DNA of 41,531 nt, taken from an uncultured Desulfobacteraceae bacterium (lineage in GTDB: Bacteria; Desulfobacterota; DSM-4660; Desulfatiglandales; HGW-15). Each line of letters opens with the position of its first letter. The first letter of the stretch is position 1. Positions 5,899-29,507 of the stretch are shown one piece after another. The translations under genes and the position numbers were made by a program. The notes under the pieces were generated by a model. That model was not told the origin of the DNA. It saw only the letters and a program-made list of their open reading frames with translations, and did not search any database. The stretch is from NCBI GenBank assembly GCA_964484515.1, contig CAZAGT010000005.1:1-41531 (forward strand), given 5' to 3'.

Positions 5899-5982
5899 CG
5901 TAGGCGTCTCAAGACAATGAGCCATGTCATAATAGCCGGTGCGATAGAACAAGAAAGAGACTTTGTTGGAGGAGGTCCATAG

Positions 5983-6366: not shown

Positions 6367-6377
6367 GGGGGTTTCTA

Positions 6378-7829
6378 ATGGAACACTATTCCATGCTCAT
6401 TGACGGCCAATGGGTCGATGCTGAGAGCGGGGAGACCATGGAGGTCGTCAATCCCGCAGACGAAGAACCCTTTGCCAAGGTACCCAGAGCTTCGGAGGCT
6501 GAAGCCACTAAAGCCCTCGAGGCGGCCCAAAAGGCTTTCCCCTCGTGGGCGGCCCTATCACCGGAGCAACGGGGCGTCCATCTCTGGCGCGCGAGTGATA
6601 TCCTGGAGGAACGGCAAGGGCAGATCGGCCGTCTCATGACGAGGGAACAGGGTAAACCGGTCAAAGAGGCGGTTGGTGAGATCGAAAAGGCGATTGAGAT
6701 GCTTCGCTATTACGCCGAGGAGGGCAAGCGGGCTTACGGGCAGATCATACCGAATGCAAACCCTCAGGACCAGAGCCTAGTAATCAAGCAACCGATCGGT
6801 GTCGTGGCCGCCTTATCGCCGTGGAATTATCCCGTGGAGCTCATCGGGTGGAAGGCGGCGGCGGCCCTCGCGGCTGGTTGTACGATCGTGGCCAAACCAC
6901 CTTCTTTGACGCCTCTCTCCCCCTTGGAGTATTTGCGGTGTCTCCATGACGCCGGGCTCCCTCATGGGGTCATTAACGCCGTCACGGGCCCGGGAGGTTC
7001 CGTGGGCCGTCAACTCGTCAGAAGCCCGATTTCAAGAAAGGTGGCCTTTACGGGCTCCTTGGGAGTCGGCTTGGATATTCAAAGGCAAGTTGAAGACACC
7101 ATTAAGAAAGTCTCGCTGGAACTGGGAGGGCAGTGTCCGCTCATCGTGAGCGCAAACTGCGATCTTGCCAATGCCGTCAAGGGGGCTACCAGGAGATCTT
7201 TTCGAAACATGGGGCAGATCTGTATCGCCATCAACCGGATCTACGTCCAGGAGAAGATCTATGAGGCATTCCTGCAGGACTTCGCACAGGAGACCGGCAA
7301 ACTGGTCGTCGGCAACAGCTTGGAGAAGGAAGATTGCGATCTGGGTCCCATGGCCGGCTCGGATGGGCTCCAAAAAGCCATGTCGCACGTGGATGATGCA
7401 CTTGCCAAAGGGGCCCGCTTGATCTGTGGCGGCAAAAGGCCCGAAGGACCCGAATTCCGCAAGGGTTATTTTCTTGAACCGACCATCCTTGCCGATACGA
7501 ATCACGATATGCTGGTCATGACGGAGGAGACCTTCGGCCCCGTCGTCGGTGTGATGGTGTATCGCGACCTTGACGAGGCGATCGGGCTGGCCAACGCTAC
7601 TCCCTATGGATTGGCGGCCTACGCCTATACGAACGATTTACATGAAATGAACAGGATCTCCAAGGAGCTCGAGGCGGGCAGTGTGGCCGTCAACAACGTG
7701 GACGCGGGGATTATGAACGCGCCTTACGGGGGATGGAAACAGAGCGGGATCGGGCATGAACACGGCCATGAAGGGCTCGAGGAGTACCTCCAGCTCAAAC
7801 ATGTACGTGTTCGTTACAGATCCCCTTGA
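6378..7829 (+). CDS. NAD(P)-dependent aldehyde dehydrogenase
   Basis: ALDH hallmarks: WNYP, KKVSLELGG (catalytic Glu), FRNMGQICIA (catalytic Cys) and EETFGPV. In-frame ATG at 6378 (MEHYSMLIDGQWV) is the likely start. Confidence 0.9.
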   Translation: MEHYSMLIDGQWVDAESGETMEVVNPADEEPFAKVPRASEAEATKALEAAQKAFPSWAALSPEQRGVHLWRASDILEERQGQIGRLMTREQGKPVKEAVGEIEKAIEMLRYYAEEGKRAYGQIIPNANPQDQSLVIKQPIGVVAALSPWNYPVELIGWKAAAALAAGCTIVAKPPSLTPLSPLEYLRCLHDAGLPHGVINAVTGPGGSVGRQLVRSPISRKVAFTGSLGVGLDIQRQVEDTIKKVSLELGGQCPLIVSANCDLANAVKGATRRSFRNMGQICIAINRIYVQEKIYEAFLQDFAQETGKLVVGNSLEKEDCDLGPMAGSDGLQKAMSHVDDALAKGARLICGGKRPEGPEFRKGYFLEPTILADTNHDMLVMTEETFGPVVGVMVYRDLDEAIGLANATPYGLAAYAYTNDLHEMNRISKELEAGSVAVNNVDAGIMNAPYGGWKQSGIGHEHGHEGLEEYLQLKHVRVRYRSP

Positions 7830-7870
7830 TCCATAGCGGTCAGCTAGACATCGTAAGCGGGAGGGCAAAG

Positions 7871-9406
7871 ATGCACCGGCAATGCGTCATGGGTATCGAC
7901 ATCGGGACCTCGGGATGTAAGACCTTGATCATAGACGACCAGGGCGAGGTCCTGACCAAGGCGGTCGCCGAATACCCCCTTTCAACCCCCAAGCCCGGTT
8001 GGTCGGAACAGGACCCCGAACACTGGTGGGAAGCGGTTAAGGATACGATTCGGCAAACCCTCACGGGTTTTGATCATGCCCGAGACATCAAGGCCATCGG
8101 TCTCAGTGGCCAGATGCACGGTCTGGTTGCGCTTGATGCCGATAGGAACGTGCTCAGGCCTTCGATATTGTGGAACGATCAGCGCACCGGTAAGCAATGC
8201 CAGGATGTCTACGACACCGTGGGAGGGATGGGGGCGCTCCTGGAATTGACCAATAATCGGATGCTGCCCGGCTATACGGGGGGAAAGATCCTATGGGTTC
8301 GTGAAAATGAGCCCCAGGTTTATGAACGAATCAGGGCCATCTTGAATCCCAAGGATTATGTCCGTTTGCGATTGACGGGCGAGTATGCCACCGAGGTTTC
8401 CGACGCATCCGGGACCGGGCTTTTTGATGTCCGCGCCAGACAGTGGTGTTATCCCCTGCTGGAGAAGCTCGAGATCCCAAAGGAATGGGTCCCTCCCTGT
8501 TACGAATCACCTGAAATCAGCGGCGCCCTATCCGCAACCGCCGCATCCGACGTGGGACTCCCATCAGGGTTAGCGGTCGCCGGAGGCGGAGGGGATTCGG
8601 TGGTTCAGACCACCGGGACGGGCTTGGTGGAGCCTGGGATCTTGGGGACGACCATCGGAACAGCGGGGATCGTCGCGATGGCGCTCGACCAGTGCTACGA
8701 TAACCCCGAAGGTAAGCTTCAGGTCTTCTGCAACAATATGCCGGACAAATGGCACACCATGGGCGTCACCCTGGCAGCAGGTGGCTCACTGCGGTGGGTC
8801 CGCGATGCGCTGTGCGGGCCGGAGCAAGAGGTCGCTAACTGGACCGGAGAAGATGTCTATCATTTCATGACCATGGAGGCGCTGAAGGCAGAGCCGGGGT
8901 CTGAAGGTCTCCTTTTCCTGCCTTACCTGATCGGCGAGCGGTGCCCTCATCCGGACCCCAGTGCGAGGGGGGCATTTGTCGGGCTCACGTTGCGACACGA
9001 CCGGCGCCACATTATAAGGAGTGTGCTCGAATGTGTCATCTTCAGCCTAAGGGATGTGGCCGAGGTGATCAAGGAGATGGGTATTCCGATCACCCAAATC
9101 CGTACCTCCGGGGGAGGTGCTCTCAGCACGCTGTGGCGACAGATCCACGCGGATGTCTTCGCCAATGAGGTGATCACCGTGAGCGGTAGTTCGGAGGGGG
9201 GCGCCTACGGGGCAGCCCTGGTGGCCGGCGCCGGTGTCGGCGTTTGGGAGAATGTCGAGGCGGCGGTGCAGGTGTTACGAGCGGAAACGACCACCACGCC
9301 CATCGAAGAGCACACAAAGATCTACGATCGGTTATTCCCTATCTACCAGAATCTCTACGCCGCCTTGAAAAAGAGCTCTGAGCGAATCTCCGAAATCTAT
9401 TCCTAA
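7871..9406 (+). CDS. xylB: xylulokinase / FGGY-family pentulose kinase
   Basis: GIDIGTSGCKT N-terminal FGGY motif, GLSGQMHG and the C-terminal GGGA region. ATG at 7871 follows GGGAGGG. Confidence 0.8.
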   Translation: MHRQCVMGIDIGTSGCKTLIIDDQGEVLTKAVAEYPLSTPKPGWSEQDPEHWWEAVKDTIRQTLTGFDHARDIKAIGLSGQMHGLVALDADRNVLRPSILWNDQRTGKQCQDVYDTVGGMGALLELTNNRMLPGYTGGKILWVRENEPQVYERIRAILNPKDYVRLRLTGEYATEVSDASGTGLFDVRARQWCYPLLEKLEIPKEWVPPCYESPEISGALSATAASDVGLPSGLAVAGGGGDSVVQTTGTGLVEPGILGTTIGTAGIVAMALDQCYDNPEGKLQVFCNNMPDKWHTMGVTLAAGGSLRWVRDALCGPEQEVANWTGEDVYHFMTMEALKAEPGSEGLLFLPYLIGERCPHPDPSARGAFVGLTLRHDRRHIIRSVLECVIFSLRDVAEVIKEMGIPITQIRTSGGGALSTLWRQIHADVFANEVITVSGSSEGGAYGAALVAGAGVGVWENVEAAVQVLRAETTTTPIEEHTKIYDRLFPIYQNLYAALKKSSERISEIYS

Positions 9407-9460
9407 CGTAGCCCCCCGACTGCAACTCCGTTCTCTTTTTGCCCCCGGTGGACAGCTGGC

Positions 9461-9490
9461 TTGACAGTGTGGGCGTTCGCCCTCTATATA
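9461..9490 (+). promoter_or_regulatory. sigma-70-type promoter candidate for the MoaD-like/AOR pair
   Basis: TTGACA (9461-9466), an 18-nt spacer, then TATATA (9485-9490). It lies inside the 5' part of track ORF 9439..9813, which argues that the real start is downstream. Confidence 0.45.
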
Positions 9491-9528
9491 TTTCGCTATC
9501 GAGGATGCAAGAAGCCTTCAAGGATCGA

Positions 9529-9813
9529 ATGGCTCTCAAGAGCGGAAATAGCGCCTTTATAAAAATACAGGTGAGCCTGCGCCTGGTCCTTTTCAAGGAC
9601 GACGTGAAAATGGACGTTCCGCTCGGGACCACGGTGAACCAGGCCGTGACCCGGTTTGTGGACCATTGTGAGGAAAAGGCTAGGGACCTTATCATCGATT
9701 CGAAGGGGAAGCTCAAGGTCCTTACCTTGGTCAATAATGAGCGTGCCGTAAATGACAAAATCTTGAAGGAAGGCGACCGGTTGAGCCTAGTGGCCCTGGT
9801 CTCCGGCGGATGA
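9529..9813 (+). CDS. MoaD/ThiS-family ubiquitin-like sulfur-carrier protein
   Basis: Ends in ...LVALVSGG, the diagnostic C-terminal Gly-Gly. About 94 aa from ATG 9529 (alternative ATG at 9505). Sits immediately upstream of AOR. Confidence 0.65.
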   Translation: MALKSGNSAFIKIQVSLRLVLFKDDVKMDVPLGTTVNQAVTRFVDHCEEKARDLIIDSKGKLKVLTLVNNERAVNDKILKEGDRLSLVALVSGG

Positions 9814-9828
9814 AGGGAGGCGAAGAGC

Positions 9829-11718
9829 ATGACGATAGCAGGAATTGTGAACCGGATGGGGTTTATCGACCTGGCAAGTGGTGAGACGACCTATGAGCCG
9901 ATACCCGACGAGTTGGTGCGTGACTACCTCGGTGGCTACGGATTGGGGGCTCACGTACTCATGCAGCGTCAACCGGCGGGCGTCGATCCGCTGGGTGCGG
10001 AGGCCCTGCTTGGCTTCACTACGGGTCCGCTGACGGGAACGGACGCGATCACGGGCAACCGTTTCACGGTGGTGGGCAAGTCGCCCAAGACGGGCGGCTG
10101 GGGCGACGCCAACTGTGGTGGTGATTTCGGACCGGCCATGAAGATGTCCGGCTTCGATCACCTGTTCTTTAAAGGGATCGCCGTTGATCCCGTGGTCATC
10201 GTTTTGGATGGAGGTAAAGCCGAGATCAAACCGGCCGGGGATCTTTGGGGGCTGGGCTGCGTCGAGACCGAAAAACGGCTGAAGGAGACCTACGGCAAAA
10301 AGGCAAACGTGGCCTGCATCGGGCCGGCGGGCGAGCGGGTATCGCTCCTGGCCTGCGTCATCAATGACAAGGGGCGGGCCGCCGGACGCTCCGGCCTGGG
10401 TGCTGTCATGGGTGCCAAGAAGATCAAGGCGATTGTGGCCGTGGCAACGGACAAGGTCCCCGTGGCTGACGCGGAAGGCCTCAAGAACCTGCGCAAGGAC
10501 ATCGTTGCATCCTATAAGAAAGGCAATCCCGGGTACGATCTGTTTAGCAAGTATGGAACGGCGGGTGTGACCGCCAACACCGTCTTGATGGGCGACGGCC
10601 CGATCAAGAACTGGGCCGGCACCGTCGATGAGTTTCCCGGTGTCGAGAAGATCAGCGATGACAGTGTATTCGGCATCCAGGTGCGGCCCTATGGATGCTG
10701 GCGCTGCCCGGTGTCCTGTGGCGGACATGTGAAGGTCCCGGAGGGCCCCCTTGCGGGGATCGAAGGCCATAAGCCCGAATACGAGACCCTGGCTGCGTTT
10801 GGCAGCATGTGCCTGAACGACGATTTGGCGACCATCGTCAAGGCCAATAACCTCTGTAACGACTACGGCATGGACACCATTTCCGCAGGGACCACCGTGG
10901 CCTATGCCTTCGAGCTGTATGACCGTGGGTTGATCAGCAGCGATGATCTGGGCGGCCTCGAACTGACGTGGGGCAATGGTGAGGCCGTGGTGGCCCTGAC
11001 CGAACAGCTGGCTACCGGGGAGGGTCCCGGCGCTAAGCTTTTCGGTGATGGGATGAAGGCCGCGGCGGGGCGGATCGGAAAGGGTTCAGAGGCCTTCGCC
11101 ATGCATGCCGCTGGTGAGGAACTGCCCATGCACGACCCGCGGTGCAAGCCGGGCCTCGGCGCGAGCTACGTGATCGATGCCACACCTGGCCGGCATACCC
11201 AGTGGAGTTCATGGAACGTTGAAGACGGATTTGTGCCGGCGGGCCTGAATCCCCCTCCGATCGAAGACAAGTATGTATACAGCGGCAAGGGAGAATCCCA
11301 CTACATCATGAGCAACTTCGGGCACTGCGTCAACATGGCGGGAGTCTGTTGGTTTGCCACGAGCATCGGGCCGGCCGAGGCATTGCCCAAGGCCCTCTCA
11401 CTCGCCACCGGCGTGAAATTCGAAACGGCGGATATGCAGGTCATTGGTGCCCGCGCGGCCGCTCTGCGGCAGGCGTTCAATTTCCGGGAGGGTTACAAGA
11501 GCCTGGAGGTCAGACTCCCGGACCGGGCACTTGGGAAACCGCCCCTGGCAGGCGGTCCAACCAAGGGCGTCACGGTGGACAACGCGCAGGAGATTCGAGA
11601 CTACATGGAGGTGGCGGGCTGGAACCAGTCCAACGGCTGCCCCAGCGAGGCGACGTTGCGTCGGCTGGGCCTTGACTTCGTTCTGGACGTTATCGGCGAC
11701 GAAGCGCGAGCCGGATAG
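9829..11718 (+). CDS. aor: tungsten-containing aldehyde:ferredoxin oxidoreductase (AOR family)
   Basis: 629 aa. N-terminal AOR_N pattern (GGYGLGAHVL, TGPLTGT, the GDANCGG region), a Cys cluster CWRCPVSC, and C-terminal domains typical of AOR. Confidence 0.9.
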   Translation: MTIAGIVNRMGFIDLASGETTYEPIPDELVRDYLGGYGLGAHVLMQRQPAGVDPLGAEALLGFTTGPLTGTDAITGNRFTVVGKSPKTGGWGDANCGGDFGPAMKMSGFDHLFFKGIAVDPVVIVLDGGKAEIKPAGDLWGLGCVETEKRLKETYGKKANVACIGPAGERVSLLACVINDKGRAAGRSGLGAVMGAKKIKAIVAVATDKVPVADAEGLKNLRKDIVASYKKGNPGYDLFSKYGTAGVTANTVLMGDGPIKNWAGTVDEFPGVEKISDDSVFGIQVRPYGCWRCPVSCGGHVKVPEGPLAGIEGHKPEYETLAAFGSMCLNDDLATIVKANNLCNDYGMDTISAGTTVAYAFELYDRGLISSDDLGGLELTWGNGEAVVALTEQLATGEGPGAKLFGDGMKAAAGRIGKGSEAFAMHAAGEELPMHDPRCKPGLGASYVIDATPGRHTQWSSWNVEDGFVPAGLNPPPIEDKYVYSGKGESHYIMSNFGHCVNMAGVCWFATSIGPAEALPKALSLATGVKFETADMQVIGARAAALRQAFNFREGYKSLEVRLPDRALGKPPLAGGPTKGVTVDNAQEIRDYMEVAGWNQSNGCPSEATLRRLGLDFVLDVIGDEARAG

Positions 11719-17754: not shown

Positions 17755-17821
17755 CTTTTTCCTCCTTTCATTTCAGCGCTGCCTTGGCCGCTGCCAAAGA
17801 CGTCGAAAAACCAACTTCTCT

Positions 17822-17985
17822 GAGGCTGATGGAAAATGTCCAGATGCAAGGCTTCCGAAATCCCGCGGAATGAGGCGTACATAAGAGTACGCCGCAGTGA
17901 CAAGGGATGAGGGTAACGCAGCCCTTCGGCTTTGCTCAGGGCCGTGAGCCTGTCGAACGGCAGATGGGCGTTTTCCGACAGCCTC
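17822..17985 (+). repeat. copy 1 (short form) of a modular, self-complementary interspersed element
   Basis: Four blocks are shared with 21776-22055. The ends pair with each other: GAGGCTG/CAGCCTC and GGAAAATGTCCA/TGGGCGTTTTCC. There is an internal hairpin GGCGTAC-ataaga-GTACGCC. It carries an embedded REP-like segment at 17921-17960. Confidence 0.7.
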
Positions 17986-20152: not shown

Positions 20153-20632
20153 ATGAACGAAATAGCCATAGGAACCAATCAGGACCTTTTGAATTATCAA
20201 GCCCTCCGACTTCAGGAGCTGATGGCCGAGATGGTCCAGTGTTGCGACGATCGAAAGTTGTACGAATCTGAAAGGTTTCATGTGCCTCAGGCGGAGCTGA
20301 AGTGCCTCATGCTGTTTAACGGCCAACGATACCTGACGGTAAAGGACCTGGCAGGGAAGTTGGATGTGGCCAAGAGCCGCATAACCAAAATCGTCGATGG
20401 TCTCGTGCAAAAGGGCCTGGTCGAACGCATCGAGGATCCTAAAGACGCCCGCGTGAAACTCATCGGTCTGACTCCGGCCGGGAAGAAAGCATCTCAGGAA
20501 TTCGATGCCTTCCACAAGGAAATCCATCGAAGCATCCTTTTGCAGATCTCGCCCAATGAGCGCAAAAGCGTGCTCTCTCATCTTGAGATGCTGCGGTCGG
20601 CTATGGAAGCGGTGAAAGAGCAGCTGAAGTGA
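20153..20632 (+). CDS. MarR family transcriptional regulator
   Basis: Winged-HTH core LTVKDLAGKLDVAKSRITKIVDGLVQKGLVERIEDPKDARVKLIGLTPAG. Confidence 0.9.
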   Translation: MNEIAIGTNQDLLNYQALRLQELMAEMVQCCDDRKLYESERFHVPQAELKCLMLFNGQRYLTVKDLAGKLDVAKSRITKIVDGLVQKGLVERIEDPKDARVKLIGLTPAGKKASQEFDAFHKEIHRSILLQISPNERKSVLSHLEMLRSAMEAVKEQLK

Positions 20633-20705
20633 GGCCTTGAAACGGGCCTGACAGGGGCTATTCTAAGATAGGCGACCAATCCTTTGGGATTGCAAATAAA
20701 AATCT

Positions 20706-20718
20706 TTAACGATGTTAA
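20706..20718. promoter_or_regulatory. palindrome TTAAC-GAT-GTTAA, candidate MarR operator
   Basis: Lies 22 nt upstream of the dsrE-like ATG. The GTTAAC hexamer also occurs at 20144-20149, between the marR -10 element and its ATG. Confidence 0.3.
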
Positions 20719-20740
20719 CGAATAGGGTAGGGAGGATGTT

Positions 20741-21343
20741 ATGAAAGAAAATGTAGCCGCAAAGGCAGAAGTAGAGCATGAAGATTATCTCCAAAGACTG
20801 AAGGGACTGGAAGAGCAGATCTCGGGCATCAAATCGCAGTTCGAATCCCTTTCGAAGGGCACCCCTTCCAACAAACTCTCCATGATCGTATTCAGTGGGG
20901 ATTTGGACAAGGTCCTGGCCTCATTTGTCATTGCGACGGGCGCCGTCGCCATGGGCATGGAAGTGGTTATGTTCTTCACCTTCTGGGGGACTGCGGTGCT
21001 CAGGGACAAGAACAAGCCGGCTGGCGATAAAGATCTTATGGGTAAAATGTTCGGCTCCATGCTGCCCAAGGGGACATCTTCTGTGAAACTCTCCAAGATG
21101 AACATGGGCGGTATGGGAACGGTCATGATGAAATCCCTCATGAAGAAGAAGAACGTCGCCTCTTTGGAACAGATGCTCGAGATGGCCGGCGAACTGGGTG
21201 TCCGAATCTACGTATGTGAAATGTCGATGGACCTGATGGGGTTCAAGCGCGAAGAGTTTATCGACTATCCCTATATGGAATTCTGTGGTGTGGCAAAATT
21301 CCTGGAAGAAGCGAACGACAGCAGAGTACAACTCTTCATTTAA
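20741..21343 (+). CDS. DsrE/DsrF-like (DsrE_2-type) sulfur-carrier family protein with an N-terminal coiled-coil extension
   Basis: KLSMIVFSGDLDKVLASFVIATGAVAMGMEVVMFFTFWG plus Cys in IYVCEMSMDLMG, the pattern I recognise from DsrE_2 / 'peroxiredoxin family' proteins that co-occur with TusA. GGGAGG SD. Confidence 0.7.
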   Translation: MKENVAAKAEVEHEDYLQRLKGLEEQISGIKSQFESLSKGTPSNKLSMIVFSGDLDKVLASFVIATGAVAMGMEVVMFFTFWGTAVLRDKNKPAGDKDLMGKMFGSMLPKGTSSVKLSKMNMGGMGTVMMKSLMKKKNVASLEQMLEMAGELGVRIYVCEMSMDLMGFKREEFIDYPYMEFCGVAKFLEEANDSRVQLFI

Positions 21344-21357
21344 GGAGGCGAATCATC

Positions 21358-21600
21358 ATGGCTGAAGCAATCAAAGCAGACAAGGTAATGGACCTAAAGG
21401 GACTCCCCTGCCCGATGCCGGTTGTCAAGGTGAGCAAGGGAATCAAGGATGTCGAAGTGGGTCAGATCATCGAGGCGATCACCACCGACCCTGGAGCTTT
21501 GGCCGATTTTCCGGCCTGGGCGAGGACGAGCGGAAACGAGATCCTTGATACCGAGCAGGGAGACGGCGTGATCAAATTCTATATCAAACGTATCGCTTAG
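21358..21600 (+). CDS. tusA: TusA/SirA-family sulfurtransferase
   Basis: 80 aa with the LKGLPCPMPVVK active-site CPxP motif. AAGGAGG SD. Confidence 0.85.
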   Translation: MAEAIKADKVMDLKGLPCPMPVVKVSKGIKDVEVGQIIEAITTDPGALADFPAWARTSGNEILDTEQGDGVIKFYIKRIA

Positions 21601-21622
21601 TGCTTTTTGGGCTCCCTCTCAC

Positions 21623-21654
21623 GGGGGCGTTGCGACCTCAGACGCGACGCCCCC
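21623..21654 (+). terminator. GC-rich 12-bp hairpin after tusA (no U-tail)
   Basis: GGGGGCGTTGCG-acctcaga-CGCGACGCCCCC, with one G-U pair. Could act as a terminator, attenuator or RNA-stabilising hairpin. Confidence 0.3.
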
Positions 21655-21775
21655 AATCCCTCCCGAAAAGCAAGGACTTCCAGGATCGAACCAAATCGCG
21701 ACGACAAAAGTTCCCTTTCAACAAAGGGAGAGAGATCACGAATACTCACGAGACTGTCGAGAAATCGGTTTCTGA

Positions 21776-22055
21776 GAGGCTGATGGAAAATGTCCGGATG
21801 CAAGGCTTCTGAAACCGGGGACCCGCCCCGAAGGGGTGGGGACTGAGCCGAGCGAAGCGAAAGTGAAGAAATCCCGAGGAATGAGGCGTACGAGTTTTTC
21901 GGCTTGAGGCCTGAGGCTCAAGGTAAAAGCAAAGAAGGTCTTCAACTTGTCTTTCCTCATGCCCCATGCCTTGCGCCTTTTGTATACGCCGCAGTGACGA
22001 GGGATGAGGGTAATCCCGATGGAATCGGGACAGATGGGCGTTTTCCGACAGCCTT
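21776..22055 (+). repeat. copy 2 (long form) of the modular self-complementary element
   Basis: Same four blocks and the same closing helix as 17822-17985, but with three different inserts between the blocks. It ends 4 nt before the AGGGAGG SD of the dsrM-like gene. Confidence 0.7.
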
Positions 22056-22070
22056 TACAGGGAGGTTTCA

Positions 22071-22781
22071 TTGGAAACGGTATACTACATCATTTTGGTG
22101 CCCATGGTTTACCTTGCGTTTGCGGTATTCTTCGTTGGCATCGCGGTTCGACTCGTAAAACTCTTTAGCGCGCCGAAGAACCCCTCGACGCTCCAGGTCT
22201 TCCCCGAAAAAAGACCGCAACGGCTTTGGGCCTTGCATGACACCTTCCTGTTGCCCACCGTCAGGAGGCACAAACCGGTCCTGTGGGTCTTTCTAATGCT
22301 TTTCCACATCGCCTTTCTGCTGCTTATTATCGGGCATATTGAGCTTTTCGGCAATATCAGGATCTTTCAGGTGATTAAACATGAGGTGTTCCTGGGCAGA
22401 GGATTCGTCGGACTCGTTCTCACCATCGCGATCATCTACTTCCTCTTTAGGCGTTTTGTATCACCGACCAAGGATCTGTCCGTCCCCGAGGATTACTACC
22501 TCCTGATCCTCTTGTTTCTGACGGTGCTTTTTGGGAGCCAGATGGACTGGGCCCGGCGATGGTACGAATACAGCGACCTGTTGCCTGACGATTACCGTGA
22601 GTACCTCATGAGTCTGCTCTTTATGCGACCGAAGCTGTCACCCAACCTGACCCTTGCCGGGCACAGCTTCATGCTGGTGCTACATGTGTTCTTTGCAAAC
22701 CTGTTCCTCATGTTCTTTCCTTTCAGCCAGCTCATGCATTCCTTCATCGCGATGCCCATCAATAGATTGAGACGAGGTTGA
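22071..22781 (+). CDS. NarI/DsrM/HdrE-like integral membrane di-haem cytochrome b
   Basis: 236 aa with 5-6 TM helices. His residues are positioned in the TM helices (FHIAFLLLIIGHIELF; GHSFMLVLHVFFANLF...QLMH). TTG start 5 nt after AGGGAGG. Confidence 0.7.
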   Translation: METVYYIILVPMVYLAFAVFFVGIAVRLVKLFSAPKNPSTLQVFPEKRPQRLWALHDTFLLPTVRRHKPVLWVFLMLFHIAFLLLIIGHIELFGNIRIFQVIKHEVFLGRGFVGLVLTIAIIYFLFRRFVSPTKDLSVPEDYYLLILLFLTVLFGSQMDWARRWYEYSDLLPDDYREYLMSLLFMRPKLSPNLTLAGHSFMLVLHVFFANLFLMFFPFSQLMHSFIAMPINRLRRG

Positions 22782-22788
22782 TACGAGA

Positions 22789-24042
22789 ATGGACCAGAAG
22801 ACACGGGACGAACTCCTCAAGCTCTTTCAGAGCAAGTTGAATCAGGCTATGCGGTTCTACCTCGAGACGTGCACCCGATGCGGCGTCTGTACCGAGGCCT
22901 GCCATGTGTACGCTTCGATGGGGCAAACCAAGTATATTGCAGCGTACCGGGCCGAAATCGTACGCCGAATCTACAAGAAATATTTCAAGGCACGCGGGAA
23001 GATCTGGCCCTCCGTCGGAGAATCCAAAGACCTGAGCGAAATGGCCCTGGAAGAGCTTTACGAGGCCGCCTATTCGTGCACGGGGTGCAGGCGCTGCATG
23101 GTCTATTGCCCCTTCGGCATCGATACCCAAATGCTGATGTCAATCGCCAAGCTGCTCCTGGTCGGTGCCAATGCAGAGCCCGAGATCCTGACCATGTTAG
23201 CGGACACCTCCATCGAGAAGGGCAAATCGCTAGACCTTTTTAAGGAGCATTTCCTGACCGGTATCAAGAACCTCGAAGCTGAGGTAGTCGAAAAGTGGAA
23301 GGGTGAGGCGGGGAAAACACCGATCCCGGTCGATGTGGAGGGAGCGGACTTGCTGTACGTGGCCCTGGCCGGGGCGCACTCGATCGTACCCGCCGCAGCC
23401 GTCTTCAACGCCGCGCGCGAGAACTGGACCCTGAGCTTTTTTGAGGCGGTCAACTTCGGCGCCTTCGTGGGGGACCCGACGCGCACAAAGCTGATTCTGG
23501 ATCGGATCGTAAACGAGGCCAAACGCCTGCGTGTCAAGGAGGTCTGCATTTGCGAATGCGGGACCGCTTACCGGGTCATGAAACAACTAACCGGTAAGCA
23601 ACCGTTCAAGGTTTCGTCCATTACCGAGGTTCACGCCCGTTACATTCGCGAAGGCCGAATCAAGCTCGATAAATCGAAATTCAAGCAAGGGATCACCTAC
23701 CACGATCCCTGTCAGATTGCGAGGAATGGCGGTGTAATCGATGAGCCGCGTTACGTGCTCCGGAATCTCACGGACGATTACCGCGAAATGGCACCGGAGG
23801 TAACGTACAATTGGTGTTGTGGGGGTGGCGGTGGCTTGGTCGCACTAGGGGAAGAAAACTTGGATTTTCGCATGAAGTCGGCCAGAGTCAAAGCCGATCA
23901 GGTCAAGGAAACCGGAGCCAAGATCCTGGCAACGGCCTGTGAAAACTGCCACACCCAACTGAGCAATCTCAATGATCACTACGGCATGGGCGTTGACGTG
24001 CAGTTCCTGAGCTCCATGGTCGCCGACGCCCTGGTAAGCTGA
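22789..24042 (+). CDS. DsrK/HdrD-like CCG-domain iron-sulfur oxidoreductase
   Basis: CTRCGVCTEAC and CTGCRRCMVYCP (two 4Fe-4S ferredoxin motifs), plus C-terminal HDPC...NWCCGGGGG...CENC (CCG domain signature). Confidence 0.85.
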   Translation: MDQKTRDELLKLFQSKLNQAMRFYLETCTRCGVCTEACHVYASMGQTKYIAAYRAEIVRRIYKKYFKARGKIWPSVGESKDLSEMALEELYEAAYSCTGCRRCMVYCPFGIDTQMLMSIAKLLLVGANAEPEILTMLADTSIEKGKSLDLFKEHFLTGIKNLEAEVVEKWKGEAGKTPIPVDVEGADLLYVALAGAHSIVPAAAVFNAARENWTLSFFEAVNFGAFVGDPTRTKLILDRIVNEAKRLRVKEVCICECGTAYRVMKQLTGKQPFKVSSITEVHARYIREGRIKLDKSKFKQGITYHDPCQIARNGGVIDEPRYVLRNLTDDYREMAPEVTYNWCCGGGGGLVALGEENLDFRMKSARVKADQVKETGAKILATACENCHTQLSNLNDHYGMGVDVQFLSSMVADALVS

Positions 24043-24303
24043 GTAAGTGTCCGATCTTTGAGAGCCCGGTATTGGGTTAACTCTTAGGAAGGGGTAGGCT
24101 TGCCTTGCTCCCTACGGGGCAAGAGCTATTAGCTGCCCGTTCCTATGCTCTCTGAACGCACACAGACTTTTTGCTTTGCCGACACCTGCGAGGCAAAAAG
24201 GATCACTCTTCGGCCAAAAACTCATATATTATTGGGGGTTTTTCATTAGACGATAACTCTCTTATTCGAAATTCTATTCTACATCAAGAAAGGAGGAACA
24301 CCC

Positions 24304-24747
24304 GTGGAAGCGAACAAGGAAAAGGCGGCATTCATTTGCGTGAAGGACACCATTGACGGTGCATATCCCTCCCTCGTGCTTGCAATCAATGCGGCCCGCC
24401 AGGGCATGGAGAGTAAGGTCTTCTATTCGTTCATGGGTTTGAACATGGTGCTTCAGGGCGGAGCCGAGAGGGCCAAGTACTTTCCCCCGGGCGTCATGGG
24501 GGCCATTCCGGGTATGACCACTCTCGCCACCGGGATGATGAAGAAGAAGATCGACAAGGCCAACATCCCGAGCCTGGGAGAATTACAAGAAGTGGCTCAG
24601 CTCGAAGGGGTCGAGCTCATCGCCTGCAAGATGACCGTCGACATGATGGACATCGATGAGGAAAAACTGATCGAAGATGTGGTCGTCTGGACGGCTGAAG
24701 ATTTCCTGAAGTATGCCAAGGATTGTAAGATTTGCTTGTTCACGTAG
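24304..24747 (+). CDS. DsrE/DsrF-like (DsrE_2-type) protein, short paralogue
   Basis: 147 aa, collinear with the core of the 200-aa paralogue (YPSLVLAINAARQGMESKVFYSFMGLN; Cys in LIACKMTVDMMD). GTG start 7 nt after AAGGAGG. Confidence 0.7.
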   Translation: MEANKEKAAFICVKDTIDGAYPSLVLAINAARQGMESKVFYSFMGLNMVLQGGAERAKYFPPGVMGAIPGMTTLATGMMKKKIDKANIPSLGELQEVAQLEGVELIACKMTVDMMDIDEEKLIEDVVVWTAEDFLKYAKDCKICLFT

Positions 24748-24767: not shown

Positions 24768-26057
24768 ATGAAACAAATTTGGCAATTATGGATCCAGAGG
24801 CTGGCAAGTACCGGCAGCCTCCCTTCCGACTCAGAAAGGCAACGGCTAAGTAAGGCCATCCTGGTCTTTCTGACGACCCTATACGCAATCCTGGGCATCC
24901 TTTGGGGTGCGGCTTATTGGGCCCTGGACCGGCCGTTTGCCGCCGCGGTCCCGACGAGCTACAGCATCCTGTCGATCGGCAACCTGCTGGTCTTCTTCCG
25001 ACTGAAGCATTACGAGTTCTTTCGCGGCAGCCAGTTGGCGCTCATCCTCATCCTGCCCTTCCTGCTCCAATGGGGCCTGGGCGGCTTTGCCAGCTCCAGC
25101 GCCGTCATCATCTGGTCCATTCTGGCGCCCATCGGCGCCCTTATGTTTGCCGGGGCGCATCAGGCCATCGGATGGTTTCTCGCCTATCTCTTCCTAATGG
25201 CCCTTTCCGGCATCATCGACGTAACCCACGTTCACCTCTGCGAACCCCTTTCGCCTTTGGTTGCTGTCCTCTTTTTTGTGATGAACATTGTCGGCGTATC
25301 CTTCATCGCCTTTGTGTTACTCAGGTTTTTTGTGCGTGAACGCGAATTGGCCATGGAAGCTTTGGGTGAGAAACATCAACGGGTCAGCCTTGAGCGCGAG
25401 CGGCTCGATAAGATCAAGAATGTACTTTCCCGCTTTGTCCCGGAGACTGCCAAAAGCATGATTGAACAGGACCCCGAGAAGGCGTTGCTCGAAAAGTACA
25501 TTCAGGACGCGACCGTGCTTTTTCTGGATATCGAAGGGTTCACGACTCTTGTCCAGAAGTATCCCCACGAAAGGATAAACCGAACGATTGAATCTTATTT
25601 TTCCATGTTCTTCGATCTGATCCAGAAGGCCGGCGGAGACGTCAATGAAACCGCCGGCGACGGTATGATGGTCATTTTTCTACACCCGGACTCCAAGCAA
25701 CACGCCCGGAATGCCGTTCAGGCGGCAGTCGACATCAAACGCACGTGCGAAGCATACACTGAGCGCCGGGATCCGGATTTATTTCCCATACGCGTCAACA
25801 CCGGAATCAGCTCTGGGGAGGTTTACCTGGGATCCACGAAGATGAGGGGCACCGAACGTGATCGCTGGACGTTCACCGCGTCCGGGCCTGTCACCATCCT
25901 GGCGGCAAGGCTCTCACAATACGGCCGCGGCGGCCAAATCCTGGTGGGGGCGGAAACGGCCAAACGGTTAGACGAACGATTTCAGCTCACCTCCGTGGAA
26001 AACGTTTCGCTCAAGAACATCCAGGATCCGGGCAGGGTATTTCAGGTCAATGCCTGA
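24768..26057 (+). CDS. membrane-anchored class III adenylate/guanylate cyclase
   Basis: About 190 aa of N-terminal TM helices, then the cyclase homology domain (ATVLFLDIEGFTTL ... NETAGDGMMVIF ... VNTGISSGEVYLG). Only 20 nt separate it from the preceding gene. Confidence 0.85.
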   Translation: MKQIWQLWIQRLASTGSLPSDSERQRLSKAILVFLTTLYAILGILWGAAYWALDRPFAAAVPTSYSILSIGNLLVFFRLKHYEFFRGSQLALILILPFLLQWGLGGFASSSAVIIWSILAPIGALMFAGAHQAIGWFLAYLFLMALSGIIDVTHVHLCEPLSPLVAVLFFVMNIVGVSFIAFVLLRFFVRERELAMEALGEKHQRVSLERERLDKIKNVLSRFVPETAKSMIEQDPEKALLEKYIQDATVLFLDIEGFTTLVQKYPHERINRTIESYFSMFFDLIQKAGGDVNETAGDGMMVIFLHPDSKQHARNAVQAAVDIKRTCEAYTERRDPDLFPIRVNTGISSGEVYLGSTKMRGTERDRWTFTASGPVTILAARLSQYGRGGQILVGAETAKRLDERFQLTSVENVSLKNIQDPGRVFQVNA

Positions 26058-26201
26058 TAAGAGTGACGGTTGCTTCGGAGGCGTCCCGTCGCCGAACCAT
26101 GGCGCCGATTCTGCACCGACGTGCTCGGAGCTGGATCGAATAGATGAACGCAGAAAAAATCGGAAAGATCCTAGGCAGAACACAAGGCGGCCTGTTGCTG
26201 A

Positions 26202-26546
26202 TCGGCCTCGGGCTGCTTGACAAGGGAGAGTGCACCTGAGGGTCTAGTCGCCGCCATACGAAAGGTGGCGCAAGGCGGCAAATACGTTAGTGACTCCCTC
26301 GCCGAAAAATTGGCCTCCGAGTTGGGCCCAGATGTCGAAAGGCCGATCCACGAAAGGCTCTCCGATCGTGAATATCAAGTCATTTTGATGCTCGCCGCCC
26401 GGAAGACGGTCAAAGAGATTGCCGACGAACTATCCCTGAGCGTGAAAACGATCAGCACCAACTGCACGCGTGCCCTCAGCAAAATGGGATTGAAGAACAA
26501 TGCGGGTATCGCACGTTACGCTGCAAAGCACGGACTCATCGATTAG
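26202..26546 (+). pseudogene. NarL/FixJ-type response regulator remnant (LuxR HTH retained, receiver domain missing)
   Basis: SASGCLTRESAPEGLVAAIRKVAQGGKYVS is the end of a REC domain plus linker, followed by an intact LuxR HTH (LSDREYQVILMLAARKTVKEIADELSLSVKTISTNCTRALSKMGL). An in-frame stop lies at 26199-26201, only 160 nt separate it from the cyclase, there is no SD, and the track start is a TTG. Confidence 0.5.
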
Positions 26547-26682
26547 ACCATGTAGGACAAATCCCGACAGCCGCAAAGCCCCCACTCCATTTCCATCGAT
26601 GCGGCACAAGGATTGCAGTTTTTACTGCAGAGCGGTTGCTTAAAGTGCGCCGAGATTCATTTGATGAGAAAAAGAGGCCAAG

Positions 26683-27291
26683 ATGGAAGATCGTAGTAAA
26701 CGTCGACGGTTCCCGATCGTAAATAAATCACTCCAATATCGGTTCCTGGCGATGATTCTCAGTTACGGATTCATCGTGATCCTTTTCTCTGCCTTGGCCT
26801 TCCTTGCCCCTGAGATCATCAAGATGCAGGACGAATCCCTGACGATGGAGGCTAGAGCGCTCGCTGCCGATCGGATCATCACCCTGCATACGCGGGTTTG
26901 GCTCACTGCCCTGGCGATTGTCTTCATCCTTGGGATTCATTCCTTTTATGCCTTCCATCGGGTCGTCGGTCCGCTCTATCGACTGACCCGAGCTCTTGAC
27001 CGGGTGGGGGGCGGAGACCTAAGTTTCGAAATCAGGCTGAGGAAAAAAGATTACCTTCATCATGAAGCGAGTGTTTTGAACGCGATGATTCAAAGGCTTT
27101 GCGGAAAATTAGGCCAGATTCAGCAGTCAGGCAGGGACGCCCTCTATTCTTTAGAGAATCTGGAAGAGAACCTGGGGAAGGGGGCCAGCGAGGCGCAGGA
27201 TCTGGCAGGCCTCTTAAAGGCGCATCGCGAGCATCTCCAGACCCTTCTTGATTCCGCCGAATATTTTCAGCTCCAAAGGGATAAAAATTAA
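26683..27291 (+). CDS. small membrane protein with two TM helices and a HAMP-like domain, no output domain
   Basis: TM1 FLAMILSYGFIVILFSALAFLAP; TM2 LTALAIVFILGIHSFYAF; then HAMP-like RVVGPLYRLTRALDRVGGGDLSFEIRLRKKDYLHHEASVLNAMIQRL and a coiled-coil tail. Confidence 0.6.
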   Translation: MEDRSKRRRFPIVNKSLQYRFLAMILSYGFIVILFSALAFLAPEIIKMQDESLTMEARALAADRIITLHTRVWLTALAIVFILGIHSFYAFHRVVGPLYRLTRALDRVGGGDLSFEIRLRKKDYLHHEASVLNAMIQRLCGKLGQIQQSGRDALYSLENLEENLGKGASEAQDLAGLLKAHREHLQTLLDSAEYFQLQRDKN

Positions 27292-27311
27292 GGACCTTCC
27301 TGGAGCGTACC

Positions 27312-29507
27312 CTAGGGCATGATCCGCCTGCTCCCGTGCCCGACGAATTCCAACATATCGATGTCGGCAAAGTTGGTTTGGGAATCTGCTTGTTTTGCTT
27401 CGTCCTCATCGATCTCAAGAACCGTTAGAAAGGCATCAACGACATTCCGATCAAAATGTGGTCCGGTCTCTTGTTTGATCAGCTGGATCGCGTCGCCCCT
27501 CCTCATTCCAGGTCTATAGGGCCTATCCGAAATCAGAGCGTCATAAACGTCTGCGACGGCCAAAATGCGAGCCCCCAGGCTGATCTCCTCTCCGGAGAGA
27601 CCATCCGGATATCCATCACCATCTAATCGCTCATGGTGTTGGCGAACGATAGCGACAATATCAGCATAGACCCTGATCGGTTCCAGGATGCGGGCGCCTA
27701 TCGTTGTATGCTCGCGAATGACGTCAAATTCCTCGTCGGTTAGCTTACCCGGCTTATCCAAAATGCTTGCCGGGACTCCGATTTTCCCAATGTCGTGGAG
27801 CAATCCCCCCCGATGCAGTCTCTCCAGCCCCTGCTCCGGCAGCCCCAGGCTGTTCCCGATCTTCAAGGCTATCTCGGTGACCCGTTCGGAGTGACCGGCC
27901 GTCCAGGGTGACTTGGCATCCACGGCCCTCGCAAGGGCCGTCAAGGTTCCCAAGTTAAACTCTTCCAATTCTTCCAAGAGTTGTGCATTTGTCAGTGCAA
28001 CTGCCACCTGATTGGCGATCTGGCGCGCTCGGCTAATGTCGTCCTGAACAAAATGCGAATCGGCCTGGGTTCCAAAGGTGATGATCCCGGCAAGGACCTC
28101 CTTAAGAAAGATCGGTAAAATCAAGAACGATTCGATCCCTCCTACCATCTGTCTTGCAAGATAATCGGGATGACCATGCGCAACGTCAACCATGAACCAC
28201 TCGGGATTCTGCCGAAGCAACTTGAGATCACGCTCTGTCAACCGATGAACCTGGGTCAACTCTACCGCATCGGGTGTTTGACCCTGCACATAAGTCCGAG
28301 CATCCCCTTGTCCACGGGCATCCACCAGGGTGACAGCGCAAAAACCGTAGCTAAAGAAATCTCCTACCTGCTTCAGTAATTCATCCACAATTCTTTCAGT
28401 ATCCAAGGAGGAAAGGATGGCGCGGTCTATTTCGGCCATCGTTTTCAGGGCGTTGAACTGCGCTTTAAGGGTCGTGCCCATGGCGTTAAACGACTTGGCG
28501 AGTTCCTCAAACTCGTCACCCGTGTTGAGAACCACCTTTTGGTCGAAATCCCTTTTCGCGATGGACCTGGTTCCCTCTGTCAGCTTTTCGAGCGGGACAA
28601 GACTCCGTCGGATTTGGATGCTGCTGAGGAGCAATACCGTCAAGATGGCCATCACCAGAACCAAAAGGAATGTCTTTTTGAAATCCGTTACCGGCAAAAA
28701 GACGTCAGATTTTGAGATGCTCAGCACCACGGTCCATTTCGGAGAACAATAAGCGTACCTAAGAAAGGTGGACCAGTAGCTTGCGAAATATTCCTTCTGG
28801 GCACTTCTCCATTCGAGACTGCCTACTGAAGAGTGATTCAGTTCCGCGTCTAACTTCTCAACGAATGATGGAGAAACGGGGATGGAAGTATAGATGACGT
28901 TGTTTGAAGAGTTGAGGACAGAAAGCTCCGTCATATTGGGGAGTGTATCACTTTCAGCAATACCCCACAGATATGGAGTATTTATTTCAGCCCACAAAAC
29001 CCCTCGTTTCAAGTCGTCGGGATCAACGGCCTTGACCATATAGATCCGGGGTCGTGACCGTTGGCCGGTTTTTTCCAGAATGGCCGCCCTGCCGGTTCTA
29101 AGATGCTCCAATTCCCTTTGAGTTAGCTCAAAGGGGCGCAGGGTGTCGCCAAATACGACTTCAGCCACCTTACCTTTGACAAGGGCTAACGCCCTGAACC
29201 GCTTTGCCAAGCGATCACCGCGGCCATTCAATTCCCCGCTGTCTGAGCCCCCAGGGCTCACCCTCTCGCCCGAAACGATCAAGTCCAGTTCGGCTTCCAG
29301 GAACGACAATCTTTCGACAAGGCCCATCCCAAGGGCTTTGCTCGCCTGGTGGAGCCGCCTTTGACTTTGCTGATTGAGCTGTTTGACGACGTGGGTGAAT
29401 GAAAGGATCGCCAAGGCGGCGATAGGCACCATGGCCGTGACGATAAACAGGACGAAGATGCGCCTGCTAACCTTGCTCCTGAAAGACAGTGAGGTGTTAA
29501 TCAACAT
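27312..29507 (-). CDS. TM / periplasmic sensor (Cache-like) / HAMP / GAF / HD-GYP phosphodiesterase
   Basis: N-terminal TM, a periplasmic domain of about 250 aa, a second TM, HAMP (PLEKLTEGTRSIAKRDFD), GAF, then HD-GYP (GLLHDIGKIGV ... HHERLDGDGYPDGL). Confidence 0.9.
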   Translation of the reverse strand: MLINTSLSFRSKVSRRIFVLFIVTAMVPIAALAILSFTHVVKQLNQQSQRRLHQASKALGMGLVERLSFLEAELDLIVSGERVSPGGSDSGELNGRGDRLAKRFRALALVKGKVAEVVFGDTLRPFELTQRELEHLRTGRAAILEKTGQRSRPRIYMVKAVDPDDLKRGVLWAEINTPYLWGIAESDTLPNMTELSVLNSSNNVIYTSIPVSPSFVEKLDAELNHSSVGSLEWRSAQKEYFASYWSTFLRYAYCSPKWTVVLSISKSDVFLPVTDFKKTFLLVLVMAILTVLLLSSIQIRRSLVPLEKLTEGTRSIAKRDFDQKVVLNTGDEFEELAKSFNAMGTTLKAQFNALKTMAEIDRAILSSLDTERIVDELLKQVGDFFSYGFCAVTLVDARGQGDARTYVQGQTPDAVELTQVHRLTERDLKLLRQNPEWFMVDVAHGHPDYLARQMVGGIESFLILPIFLKEVLAGIITFGTQADSHFVQDDISRARQIANQVAVALTNAQLLEELEEFNLGTLTALARAVDAKSPWTAGHSERVTEIALKIGNSLGLPEQGLERLHRGGLLHDIGKIGVPASILDKPGKLTDEEFDVIREHTTIGARILEPIRVYADIVAIVRQHHERLDGDGYPDGLSGEEISLGARILAVADVYDALISDRPYRPGMRRGDAIQLIKQETGPHFDRNVVDAFLTVLEIDEDEAKQADSQTNFADIDMLEFVGHGSRRIMP

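Follow-up and report, generated by a model that had tools for sequence, protein, structure and literature searches.

The DsrMK and DsrMKJOP complexes, menaquinol:DsrC-trisulfide oxidoreductases in dissimilatory sulfite reduction, pair a NarI-type dihaem cytochrome b with a cytoplasmic protein that carries two 4Fe-4S motifs and a C-terminal CCG domain, and the two-subunit design, with a CCG-bound catalytic cluster, is also that of HdrDE, the methanophenazine:CoM-S-S-CoB oxidoreductase of methanogens. A third relative, the ETF:menaquinone oxidoreductase EtfD/EMO, combines a NarI-like membrane domain, Fe-S clusters and a CCG domain and acts on menaquinone. A locus of this kind is considered here, found in a 41,531-nucleotide stretch of DNA (contig CAZAGT010000005.1 of assembly GCA_964484515.1, positions 1 to 41,531; hereafter the window) from an uncultured Desulfobacteraceae bacterium, in which genes for a MarR-family repressor, a DsrE2-type protein, and TusA stand upstream of genes for a cytochrome b (the dsrM-like gene) and a DsrK/HdrD-type protein (the dsrK-like gene). 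The module is best filed with the DsrMK/HdrDE kind, re-targeted to a TusA/DsrE relay, and not as a member of DsrK; from its gene context we propose, with a probability that we judge to be about even, that it is a DsrC-independent quinone:TusA/DsrE2 (per)sulfide oxidoreductase under thiol-based control.

The module shares with DsrMK/DsrMKJOP the presence of a small Cys-carrier gene beside the membrane module, and its cytochrome b is collinear with a short DsrM. It differs in that the window proteins score below the DsrK and DsrM cut-offs and belong to a separate clade with VCICECGT instead of GECGH, in that the window family lacks linked dsrJOP, dsrC, and dsrAB and has dsrE2 and tusA as its carrier genes, and in that it also occurs in metagenome-assembled genomes (MAGs) labelled as phyla not known for sulfate respiration. 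The heterodisulfide substrate of HdrDE joins two thiol partners, to which TusA and DsrE2 may be analogous, but the hosts of the module are bacteria without CoM or CoB, and the proposed partners are proteins, not cofactors. EtfD gives the best structural match, although it is one fused polypeptide with ETF as its partner, and no etfAB genes are found near the module.

Described sulfur-relay clusters overlap with the other half of the module. In the Rhd-TusA-DsrE2 and sHdr-LbpA clusters of sulfur oxidisers, tusA and a gene of the DsrE2 group are linked to a CCG-domain Fe-S enzyme (PMC4175335; PMC11094781); the module, however, is without HdrA, HdrB1B2, HdrC1C2, LbpA, and DsrEFH, would pass electrons to quinone via its cytochrome b, and has a soluble DsrE2 in contrast to the two-helix membrane protein DsrE2A (PMC12998232). 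The YTD/DsrEFH type II clusters (yedE-tusA-dsrE-chp) of Desulfobacterota and Nitrospirota likewise contain a pair made up of TusA and a DsrE-family protein, conserved in sulfate reducers and disproportionators (PMC13293266), whereas the module has no YeeE/YedE transporter and no DsrF/DsrH-like partners but a DsrMK-like pair and MarR. Persulfide-responsive operons, controlled by CstR, BigR/SqrR, or MarR-type regulators and encoding rhodanese, TusA/DsrE-like proteins, a persulfide dioxygenase, or CoA-persulfide reductase, resemble the module in placing a thiol-based repressor beside sulfurtransferases, and genes for rhodanese-metallo-beta-lactamase (MBL) and pyridine-nucleotide-disulfide oxidoreductase (PNDR)-rhodanese fusions occur in related module loci; those operons differ in using O2-dependent dioxygenases or NAD(P)H-dependent flavoproteins. 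No persulfide-responsive detoxification operon is known to use a quinone-linked HdrD/DsrK-type enzyme.

When the window was first interpreted from its letters alone (the sequence-only reading), the system was taken to be undescribed, a claim that has to be narrowed. Some organisms have "an alternative DsrMK type" besides DsrMKJOP according to the DiSCo study (PMC8477390), a basal DsrMK-only clade that includes Deltaproteobacteria also possessing DsrMKJOP has been reported by Neukirchen et al., with the neighbouring non-Dsr genes unnamed (PMC10504309), and dsrM2K2 paralogues upstream of dsrAB have been reported by Hausmann et al. (PMC6018796). DsrMK-only paralogues are thus on record; as for tusA/dsrE clusters, those known from sulfate reducers and disproportionators are of the YTD/DsrEFH type II, which has a different arrangement (PMC13293266; PMC12998232). 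What stands is the linkage of TusA, DsrE2, and MarR to a DsrMK-like module, for which no description was found in the full-text literature searched, an earlier mention being possible.

Six co-directional open reading frames (ORFs) occupy positions 20153-24747 on the + strand of the window. Domains were assigned with Pfam, and NCBI curated equivalog models (NCBIfam) were scored against their own cut-offs, which none of the components reaches. The marR gene (20153..20632; PF01047, E=8e-12) is followed by the first dsrE2-type gene, dsrE2 A (20741..21343; 200 aa; PF13686, E=7e-55), with Cys159 in a VCEMS motif, and tusA (21358..21600; 80 aa; PF01206, E=1e-21), with Cys18 in CPMP. After a spacer come the genes for the NarI/DsrM-type dihaem cytochrome b, the putative quinone-interacting membrane subunit (22071..22781; 236 aa; PF02665, E=2e-12), and for the DsrK/HdrD-type cytoplasmic putative catalytic subunit with Fer4_8 and CCG domains (22789..24042; 417 aa). 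The last gene, dsrE2 B (24304..24747; 147 aa; PF13686, E=4e-35), has Cys108 in ACKMT and its own ribosome-binding site, AAGGAGG; a MASE6-adenylate/guanylate cyclase gene follows at 24768-26057. The gene calls and coordinates of the sequence-only reading agree with these ORFs and their Pfam assignments. So does its statement that DsrAB, DsrC, DsrJOP, HdrA, and LbpA are missing from the window: none of these, nor HdrB1B2 or HdrC1C2, was found by domain assignment among the main ORFs of the window, and a DsrC query gave no match to it.

The arrangement is conserved among close relatives. A one-genome-per-species scan with peptide patterns from the query yielded at least 223 relatives, of which the best 80 loci (81-88% identity), including that of the cultured sulfate reducer Desulfacinum infernum DSM 9756, were analysed; the labels of the close relatives are Desulfobacterales, Desulfatiglandales, and Desulfacinum. 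Where at least 2.8 kb of upstream flank is available, dsrE2, tusA, and the dsrM-like and dsrK-like genes stand in this order in 57 of 58 loci, and 56 of the 58 have the full order from marR onward; the gene arrangement is beyond chance. No DsrC homologue is present in 1.14 Mb around the 80 relatives, and ORF clustering of these loci found no dsr, sHdr-LbpA, or YTD-type genes among the conserved neighbours. The six-gene unit of the sequence-only reading is reduced by this comparison to marR plus four genes. An orthologue of dsrE2 B (80-82% identity) lies downstream in only 2 of the 56 loci with downstream flank (L003 and L063), where it stands behind a FadL/TodX-type porin gene and a thioredoxin gene, so that dsrE2 B is rejected as a core part and treated as a lineage-specific accessory. 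The cyclase, through which the module had been suggested to signal, has no counterpart beside the module in any of the 80 loci, and the link is rejected.

The neighbourhood varies around this core. Of the 56 loci with downstream flank, 23 have, immediately after the dsrK-like gene, a gene for a FadL/TodX/OMPP1-type outer-membrane channel that the window lacks (examples are L057:11704-12969 and L063:11366-12628, plus 21 other loci); such channels import hydrophobic molecules and might conceivably help to take up elemental sulfur or organic polysulfanes. A rhodanese-MBL fusion gene is found beside the module in nine loci, where it diverges from marR or follows the dsrK-like gene (L063:6274-7464 on the - strand, L003, L015, L026, L065, L066, L069, L072, and L079), and a thioredoxin gene in two.

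The linkage extends beyond Desulfobacterota. When distant sisters of the DsrK-like protein, at 42-57% identity, are traced to their contigs, tusA is present in all seven contexts with upstream flank, in each case directly upstream of the cytochrome b gene, and dsrE2 in six of the seven; because of these counts, the linkage defines a family wider than the clade of the window. Intergenic gaps in conserved loci usually range from a few to ~80 bp. For the MAGs labelled Bacillota, Chloroflexota, Actinobacteria, and Coriobacteriia, identities of the four-gene core are 42-53%. A dsrE2-tusA pair lies upstream of the dsrM-like and dsrK-like genes in a metagenome contig at 57% identity (L085) and in MAGs labelled Bacillota (L089) and Betaproteobacteria (L094); in MAGs labelled Actinobacteria (L091) and Coriobacteriia (L092 and L093) the upstream genes are for an ArsR-type regulator and dsrE2-tusA, and in one labelled Chloroflexota (L090) rhodanese and ArsR-type regulator genes come before dsrE2-tusA. 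Downstream in L091 are genes for a PNDR with a C-terminal rhodanese domain, an AhpC/thioredoxin-like protein, and a DsbD-type membrane protein, and a flavoprotein-rhodanese fusion gene directly follows the dsrK-like gene in L081, the locus of sister P0122; the two PNDR-rhodanese genes (L081:1703-3448 and L091:6338-8065) have the architecture of CoA-persulfide/NADH-persulfide reductase. The variable companions are of the kind found in reactive-sulfur-species operons.

In L086-L088, tusA is upstream without dsrE2, and the CCG part of the DsrK-like protein is a separate gene. The split (L086:6001-7262, L087:6001-7262, and L088:4674-5935) yields a 336-aa Fe-S part and an 84-96-aa CCG part, whose genes overlap by ATGA in L087; this lineage also has a divergent C_GCAxxG_C_C protein gene. 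The opposite condition is seen at L082:7001-9475, which encodes a 661-aa natural fusion of NarI-like cytochrome b and DsrK-like protein (39% identity). Behind the fusion gene comes one for a small multihaem cytochrome c, and neither tusA nor dsrE2 is found nearby.

The DsrK-like protein has the motifs of DsrK, with two CX2CX2CX3C sets (C28/31/34/38 and C97/100/103/107), HDPC308, WCC343/344GGGGG, and C384ENC387, so that a complete C-terminal CCG motif is preceded by a degenerate first one containing VCICECGT. Each of its 16 Cys residues is kept in 99-100% of 81 sequences, which are on average 84% identical to the window protein. The DsrK-like protein scores 274.5 bits against the DsrK model (NF045796; cut-off 400), 227 against TmcB (735), and 212 against HmcF (750), and clade members and nearest sisters range from 235 to 275 bits on the DsrK model (clade representative P0121, 259; sister P0122, 269), whereas P0137, which is 37% identical to the window protein, reaches 451. 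Among representatives clustered at 50% identity, one full-length relative is 80% identical, the next 48%, and the others at most 43%; the clade is tight and isolated. A neighbour-joining tree, computed without support values, groups the clade with P0122 and the DsrM-DsrK fusion, apart from DsrK and the Hmc/Tmc-like groups. The clade is further set off by the degenerate motif itself, which reads V-C-[IV]-C-E-C-G-T in place of the xxECGH of 40/40 outgroup representatives; it thereby has two extra invariant Cys (C253/C255) and a His-to-Thr change (Thr259) that are absent from those 40. Near true DsrK, P0133 (40% identity, 353 bits) is encoded in the order dsrC-dsrM-dsrK, so that the slot directly upstream of dsrM is taken by dsrC in that locus and by dsrE2-tusA in the family of the window.

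An AlphaFold2 model of the DsrK-like protein, built from a 70-sequence alignment (pLDDT 91, pTM 0.89) and compared with the PDB by Foldseek, has EtfD of M. smegmatis (9OJN) as its best match, at E=8e-12, a TM-score of 0.66 normalised to the query, and 18% identity, followed by LutA (1e-6) and HdrB (2e-4; identity ~15%). The family profile also matches HdrB (5ODC_B, E=5.7e-6), which places the protein in the CCG-domain superfamily of HdrD/HdrB, a domain that binds the non-cubane 4Fe-4S cluster; no DsrK structure was found in the PDB by sequence or profile. Database homologues number more than 3,300; the best 120 share at least 85% identity and belong to MAGs of Desulfobacterales, Desulfatiglandales, and other Thermodesulfobacteriota. 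Most of these 120 are named "Fe-S oxidoreductase" or "(Fe-S)-binding protein" and few "DsrK", the latter name coming from one JGI annotation and an Olavius symbiont annotation.

The cytochrome b belongs to the dihaem Nitrate_red_gam family (PF02665, 47.6 bits against a threshold of 22.9) and has five hydrophobic segments, of which segment 2 contains His79/His89 and segment 5 His198/205/223. All 73 orthologues, on average 70% identical to the window protein, keep H79, H89, H104, H198, H205, and H223, and the putative haem ligands H79/H89 and H205/H223 align with His residues of DsrM encoded beside dsrC; the protein is collinear with this short, 238-aa DsrM (25% identity, E=2e-12). It scores 40.2 bits against the NCBIfam DsrM model (NF038037), which represents the longer DsrMKJOP-type DsrM and has a cut-off of 300, and 50.9 bits against TmcC (240). 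The start codon is TTG, behind a GGGAGG ribosome-binding site.

Both DsrE2 proteins fall below the cut-off of 210 bits of the NCBIfam DsrE2 model (NF047629; 88.7 bits for A and 102.2 for B). They have no transmembrane segments outside the Rossmann-like core and are thus soluble, without the two helices of DsrE2A; two-helix DsrE2 has been reported to be absent from Desulfobacterota (PMC12998232). Their sequences instead have the features of the DsrE2B type, namely the DrsE_2 domain and, for DsrE2 A, an invariant Cys and a match to solved structures: 3PNX (E=1.4e-33) and 2QS7 (E=2e-17), both of the soluble trimeric DsrE2B type (PMC11094781). The dsrE2 A gene is present in 57/58 relatives, and Cys159 is kept in all of 70 orthologues, whose identity to the window protein averages 69%; an N-terminal extension of ~40 aa is helical, its coiled-coil character being judged by eye. 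TusA exceeds the gathering threshold of PF01206 (76.9 against 28.6 bits) and stays below the equivalog cut-offs of E. coli TusA and YedF; none of 69 orthologues, on average 75% identical to the window protein, lacks its Cys18. The gene for 3PNX, from S. wolfei, offers no handle on the module because it stands alone: in S. wolfei-type contigs (L095:6001-6480) it lies beside genes for HD-domain and GIY-YIG proteins, a class V aminotransferase, and a methionine-type ABC transporter. Some database entries for Clostridia relatives of the 3PNX protein carry the names "sulfide reductase" or "peroxiredoxin family protein".

MarR is encoded upstream in 57 of the 58 relatives, and its three cysteines stand out from an otherwise variable sequence: C30 and C31 are conserved in 100% and C51 in 97% of 62 orthologues, at a mean identity to the window protein of 49%. 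This is the pattern of a functionally constrained thiol sensor. MarR proteins have been reviewed as sulfane-sulfur sensors (PMC11211675), and the winged-helix domain together with the conserved cysteines are the sequence features of such repressors, making this MarR a candidate thiol/sulfane-sulfur sensor of the cluster. A palindrome, TTAAC-GAT-GTTAAC, in the marR-dsrE2 spacer (20703..20722) is a candidate operator/promoter element on weak evidence, since the exact TTAAC-N3-GTTAA operator is found in the window only and was rejected; just a looser GTTAAC-like box is enriched in relatives, with GTT[AGT]A[CT] occurring ~20-25 nt upstream of the dsrE2 ribosome-binding site in 37 of 69 versus 9.4 +/- 2.8 in shuffles.

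How the module might work is suggested by these parts. TusA (through Cys18) and the soluble DsrE2 (through Cys159) would carry sulfane sulfur in the cytoplasm and present it, as persulfide or mixed di- or trisulfide, to the Fe-S site in the CCG domain of the DsrK-like subunit, which would exchange two electrons with menaquinone/menaquinol via its two cubane clusters and the two haems of the cytochrome b. Since each carrier has one conserved Cys, a mixed TusA-S(n)-DsrE2 could stand for the DsrC trisulfide or CoM-S-S-CoB; two single-Cys carriers and C253/C255 of the enzyme would then replace the two-cysteine DsrC of DsrMK(JOP), or, alternatively, the carrier persulfide may be resolved on the extra cysteines of the enzyme. 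We infer TusA and DsrE2 to be the likely substrates from gene order, because they are adjacent carriers and analogous in this to DsrC beside DsrMK. MarR, through C30, C31, and C51, would release the operon once sulfane sulfur or oxidants modify its thiols.

In the reductive direction, the module would convert intracellular zero-valent sulfur (from polysulfide, S0, or thiosulfate cleavage) to sulfide and would be an oxygen-independent, possibly respiratory, counterpart of persulfide-dioxygenase-based detoxification; quinol-dependent reduction of a protein trisulfide by DsrMKJOP is a precedent (cited in PMC13293266). Reductive removal is favoured because the thiol-bearing MarR, the ArsR-type regulators, and the rhodanese, thioredoxin, and persulfide-reductase-like neighbours fit it. 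Only two-electron S-S chemistry is plausible for the module, not oxidation to sulfite.

Several points weigh against this proposal. Against the reductive direction, EtfD-type enzymes run towards quinone reduction and menaquinol-driven reduction of a simple persulfide is thermodynamically marginal. The 80 close loci are non-independent samples, because they were retrieved by peptide patterns and are all 81-88% identical, and the taxon labels of the MAGs outside Desulfobacterota may be wrong. In the window itself, a 470-bp repeat insert parts tusA from the genes of the membrane module, so that the five genes may not share one transcript there. The sole DsrE2B-type protein assayed, that of M. cuprina, neither reacted with any of the sulfur donors offered nor bound TusA (PMC4175335). 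Finally, DsrC may be the real substrate, because most hosts are sulfate reducers with abundant DsrC elsewhere and DsrK is the nearest named family.

That last point leads to an unlikely alternative, in which the pair is an alternative DsrMK still acting on DsrC, and TusA/DsrE2 only deliver sulfane sulfur to DsrC. Delivery would resemble Rhd-TusA-DsrE2 or DsrEFH in sulfur oxidisers, and the DsrMK paralogue would make the DsrC trisulfide or reduce it, for instance when sulfate reducers oxidise sulfide, disproportionate, or use thiosulfate. No named family scores higher than DsrK, the labels of the close relatives given above are in keeping with such a role, Deltaproteobacteria with DsrMK-only paralogues besides DsrMKJOP, most of them with reductive DsrAB, are known (PMC10504309), and the route in the current model for cable bacteria and many sulfate reducers runs from TusA through DsrEFH type II and DsrC to DsrMK(J) (PMC13293266). 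However, dsrC never lies near the module in the 80 relatives, whereas true DsrMK-only loci keep it adjacent; in the MAGs labelled Bacillota, Chloroflexota, Actinobacteria, and Coriobacteriia the module is flanked by stress-type genes, not by dsr genes; and the clade has a motif of its own close to the active site and fails the DsrK cut-off.

It is distinctly unlikely that the same components work in the opposite direction and reduce quinone while sulfide plus carrier thiols, or two carrier thiols, are oxidised, whether for loading TusA for tRNA thiolation, molybdenum cofactor, and Fe-S clusters or as an energy-yielding entry of sulfide similar to that of sulfide:quinone oxidoreductase (SQR). 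EtfD, the closest solved architecture, is quinone-reducing, and oxidation of a thiol or persulfide by menaquinone is thermodynamically easier. DsrMKJOP has, in addition, been proposed to reduce quinone in sulfur oxidisers (PMC13293266). Yet a repressor with sensor Cys and neighbours such as the persulfide-reductase-like flavoprotein, thioredoxin, and AhpC-like protein fit sulfur removal better, and mnmA, moaD/moeB, and thiI are not conserved beside the module in the ORF clustering of relatives.

General thiol/disulfide repair has a slight chance of being correct; quinol would then serve to re-reduce disulfides that oxidative stress leaves on TusA, DsrE2, or other proteins, and sulfane sulfur would have no part in it. 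Cys-containing MarR proteins often sense oxidants besides sulfane sulfur (PMC11211675), thioredoxin, AhpC-like, and DsbD_TM genes are present in some contexts, and HdrD-type enzymes are disulfide reductases by ancestry; but the TusA and DsrE2 folds are dedicated to sulfur transfer, and the neighbourhoods repeatedly contain rhodanese domains, which act on sulfane sulfur. Incidental adjacency of a redundant respiratory DsrMK-like isoenzyme and an unrelated housekeeping dsrE2-tusA pair, to which the 470-bp gap in the window and the existence of stand-alone DsrE2B-type genes such as that for S. wolfei 3PNX might point, is very unlikely, since 56/58 close loci keep the order, as do seven contexts from several phyla whose identity is 42-57%, with gaps that are usually small.

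With these alternatives weighed, the core of the sequence-only reading survives and proves wider than first thought: the arrangement recurs in 56 of 58 close relatives and seven distant contexts in other phyla, score (274.5 versus 400 bits) and distance tree both set the DsrK-like protein apart from canonical DsrK, with no dsrC within ~10 kb in the 80 relatives, and the putative carrier cysteines (TusA Cys18 and DsrE2 A Cys159) are invariant. Its second DsrE2 protein, its cyclase link, and its claim of full novelty do not.

A DsrC-independent quinone:TusA/DsrE2 oxidoreductase would matter in that sulfate reducers and other anaerobes face sulfide that is constantly re-oxidised to polysulfide and elemental sulfur, and the handling of intracellular sulfane sulfur without oxygen-dependent persulfide dioxygenases is poorly understood; the module is a testable candidate for this task. 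Its breadth is considerable, the DsrK-like protein being 81-88% identical across Desulfobacterota orders and the four genes occurring in MAGs labelled as four or five other phyla. If the proposal is true, the DsrMK/HdrDE design is not tied to DsrC or CoM-S-S-CoB but can be turned to a TusA/DsrE relay, which would join the two themes of microbial sulfur bioenergetics that have been studied best, give anaerobes an oxygen-free route to remove or respire intracellular sulfane sulfur, and possibly supply a missing step in thiosulfate and S0 use by sulfate reducers, disproportionation, and cryptic sulfur cycling. The broader claim, that the module is a cross-phylum, DsrC-independent terminal oxidoreductase between the quinone pool and TusA/DsrE2-bound zero-valent sulfur and so represents an unrecognised class of "protein-persulfide:quinone oxidoreductase", is tentative, possible but still doubtful. 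When sulfate-reduction potential is inferred from metagenomes, the dsrK-like and dsrM-like genes should not be counted as DsrK and DsrM.

The 470-bp spacer between tusA and the cytochrome b gene in the window (21601..22070) is long compared with the median of 74 bp in 65 relatives because a mosaic repeat sits there; it is an insertion into the operon and no functional part of it. Repeat blocks of 24-64 bp at 21750-22054 are 84-100% identical to blocks in the intergenic region 17798-17984 and include GAGGCTGATGGAAAATGTCCnGATGCAAGGCTTC and CAGATGGGCGTTTTCCGACAGCCT. An RNA element or hidden gene in this gap or in the 261-bp gap was rejected, with no Rfam match at E<=1 and no conservation in relatives. 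Inserts of 120-361 bp also separate the dsrM-like and dsrK-like genes in 16 loci (L007, L009, L018-L021, L027-L029, L031, L033, L034, L037, L038, L045, and L050), where common repeat blocks and internal inverted repeats give them a REP/MITE-like appearance; the operon seems to be a recurrent target of small repeat insertions.

The remaining genes of the window are for sugar and aldehyde metabolism, signalling proteins, an ammonium transporter, and a molybdate-type ABC transporter. The region downstream of the module (24768-29507) is rich in signalling genes, with the MASE6-cyclase, a LuxR-type helix-turn-helix (HTH) fragment, a 202-aa protein without a Pfam match, and a HAMP-GAF-HD-GYP protein encoded on the opposite strand, none of which is kept beside the module in relatives. 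Upstream, positions 3857-11718 encode a DeoR regulator, a zinc alcohol dehydrogenase, an aldehyde dehydrogenase, an FGGY sugar kinase, and a tungsten-type aldehyde:ferredoxin oxidoreductase; this region looks like a sugar-alcohol/aldehyde utilisation island with no relation to the sulfur module.

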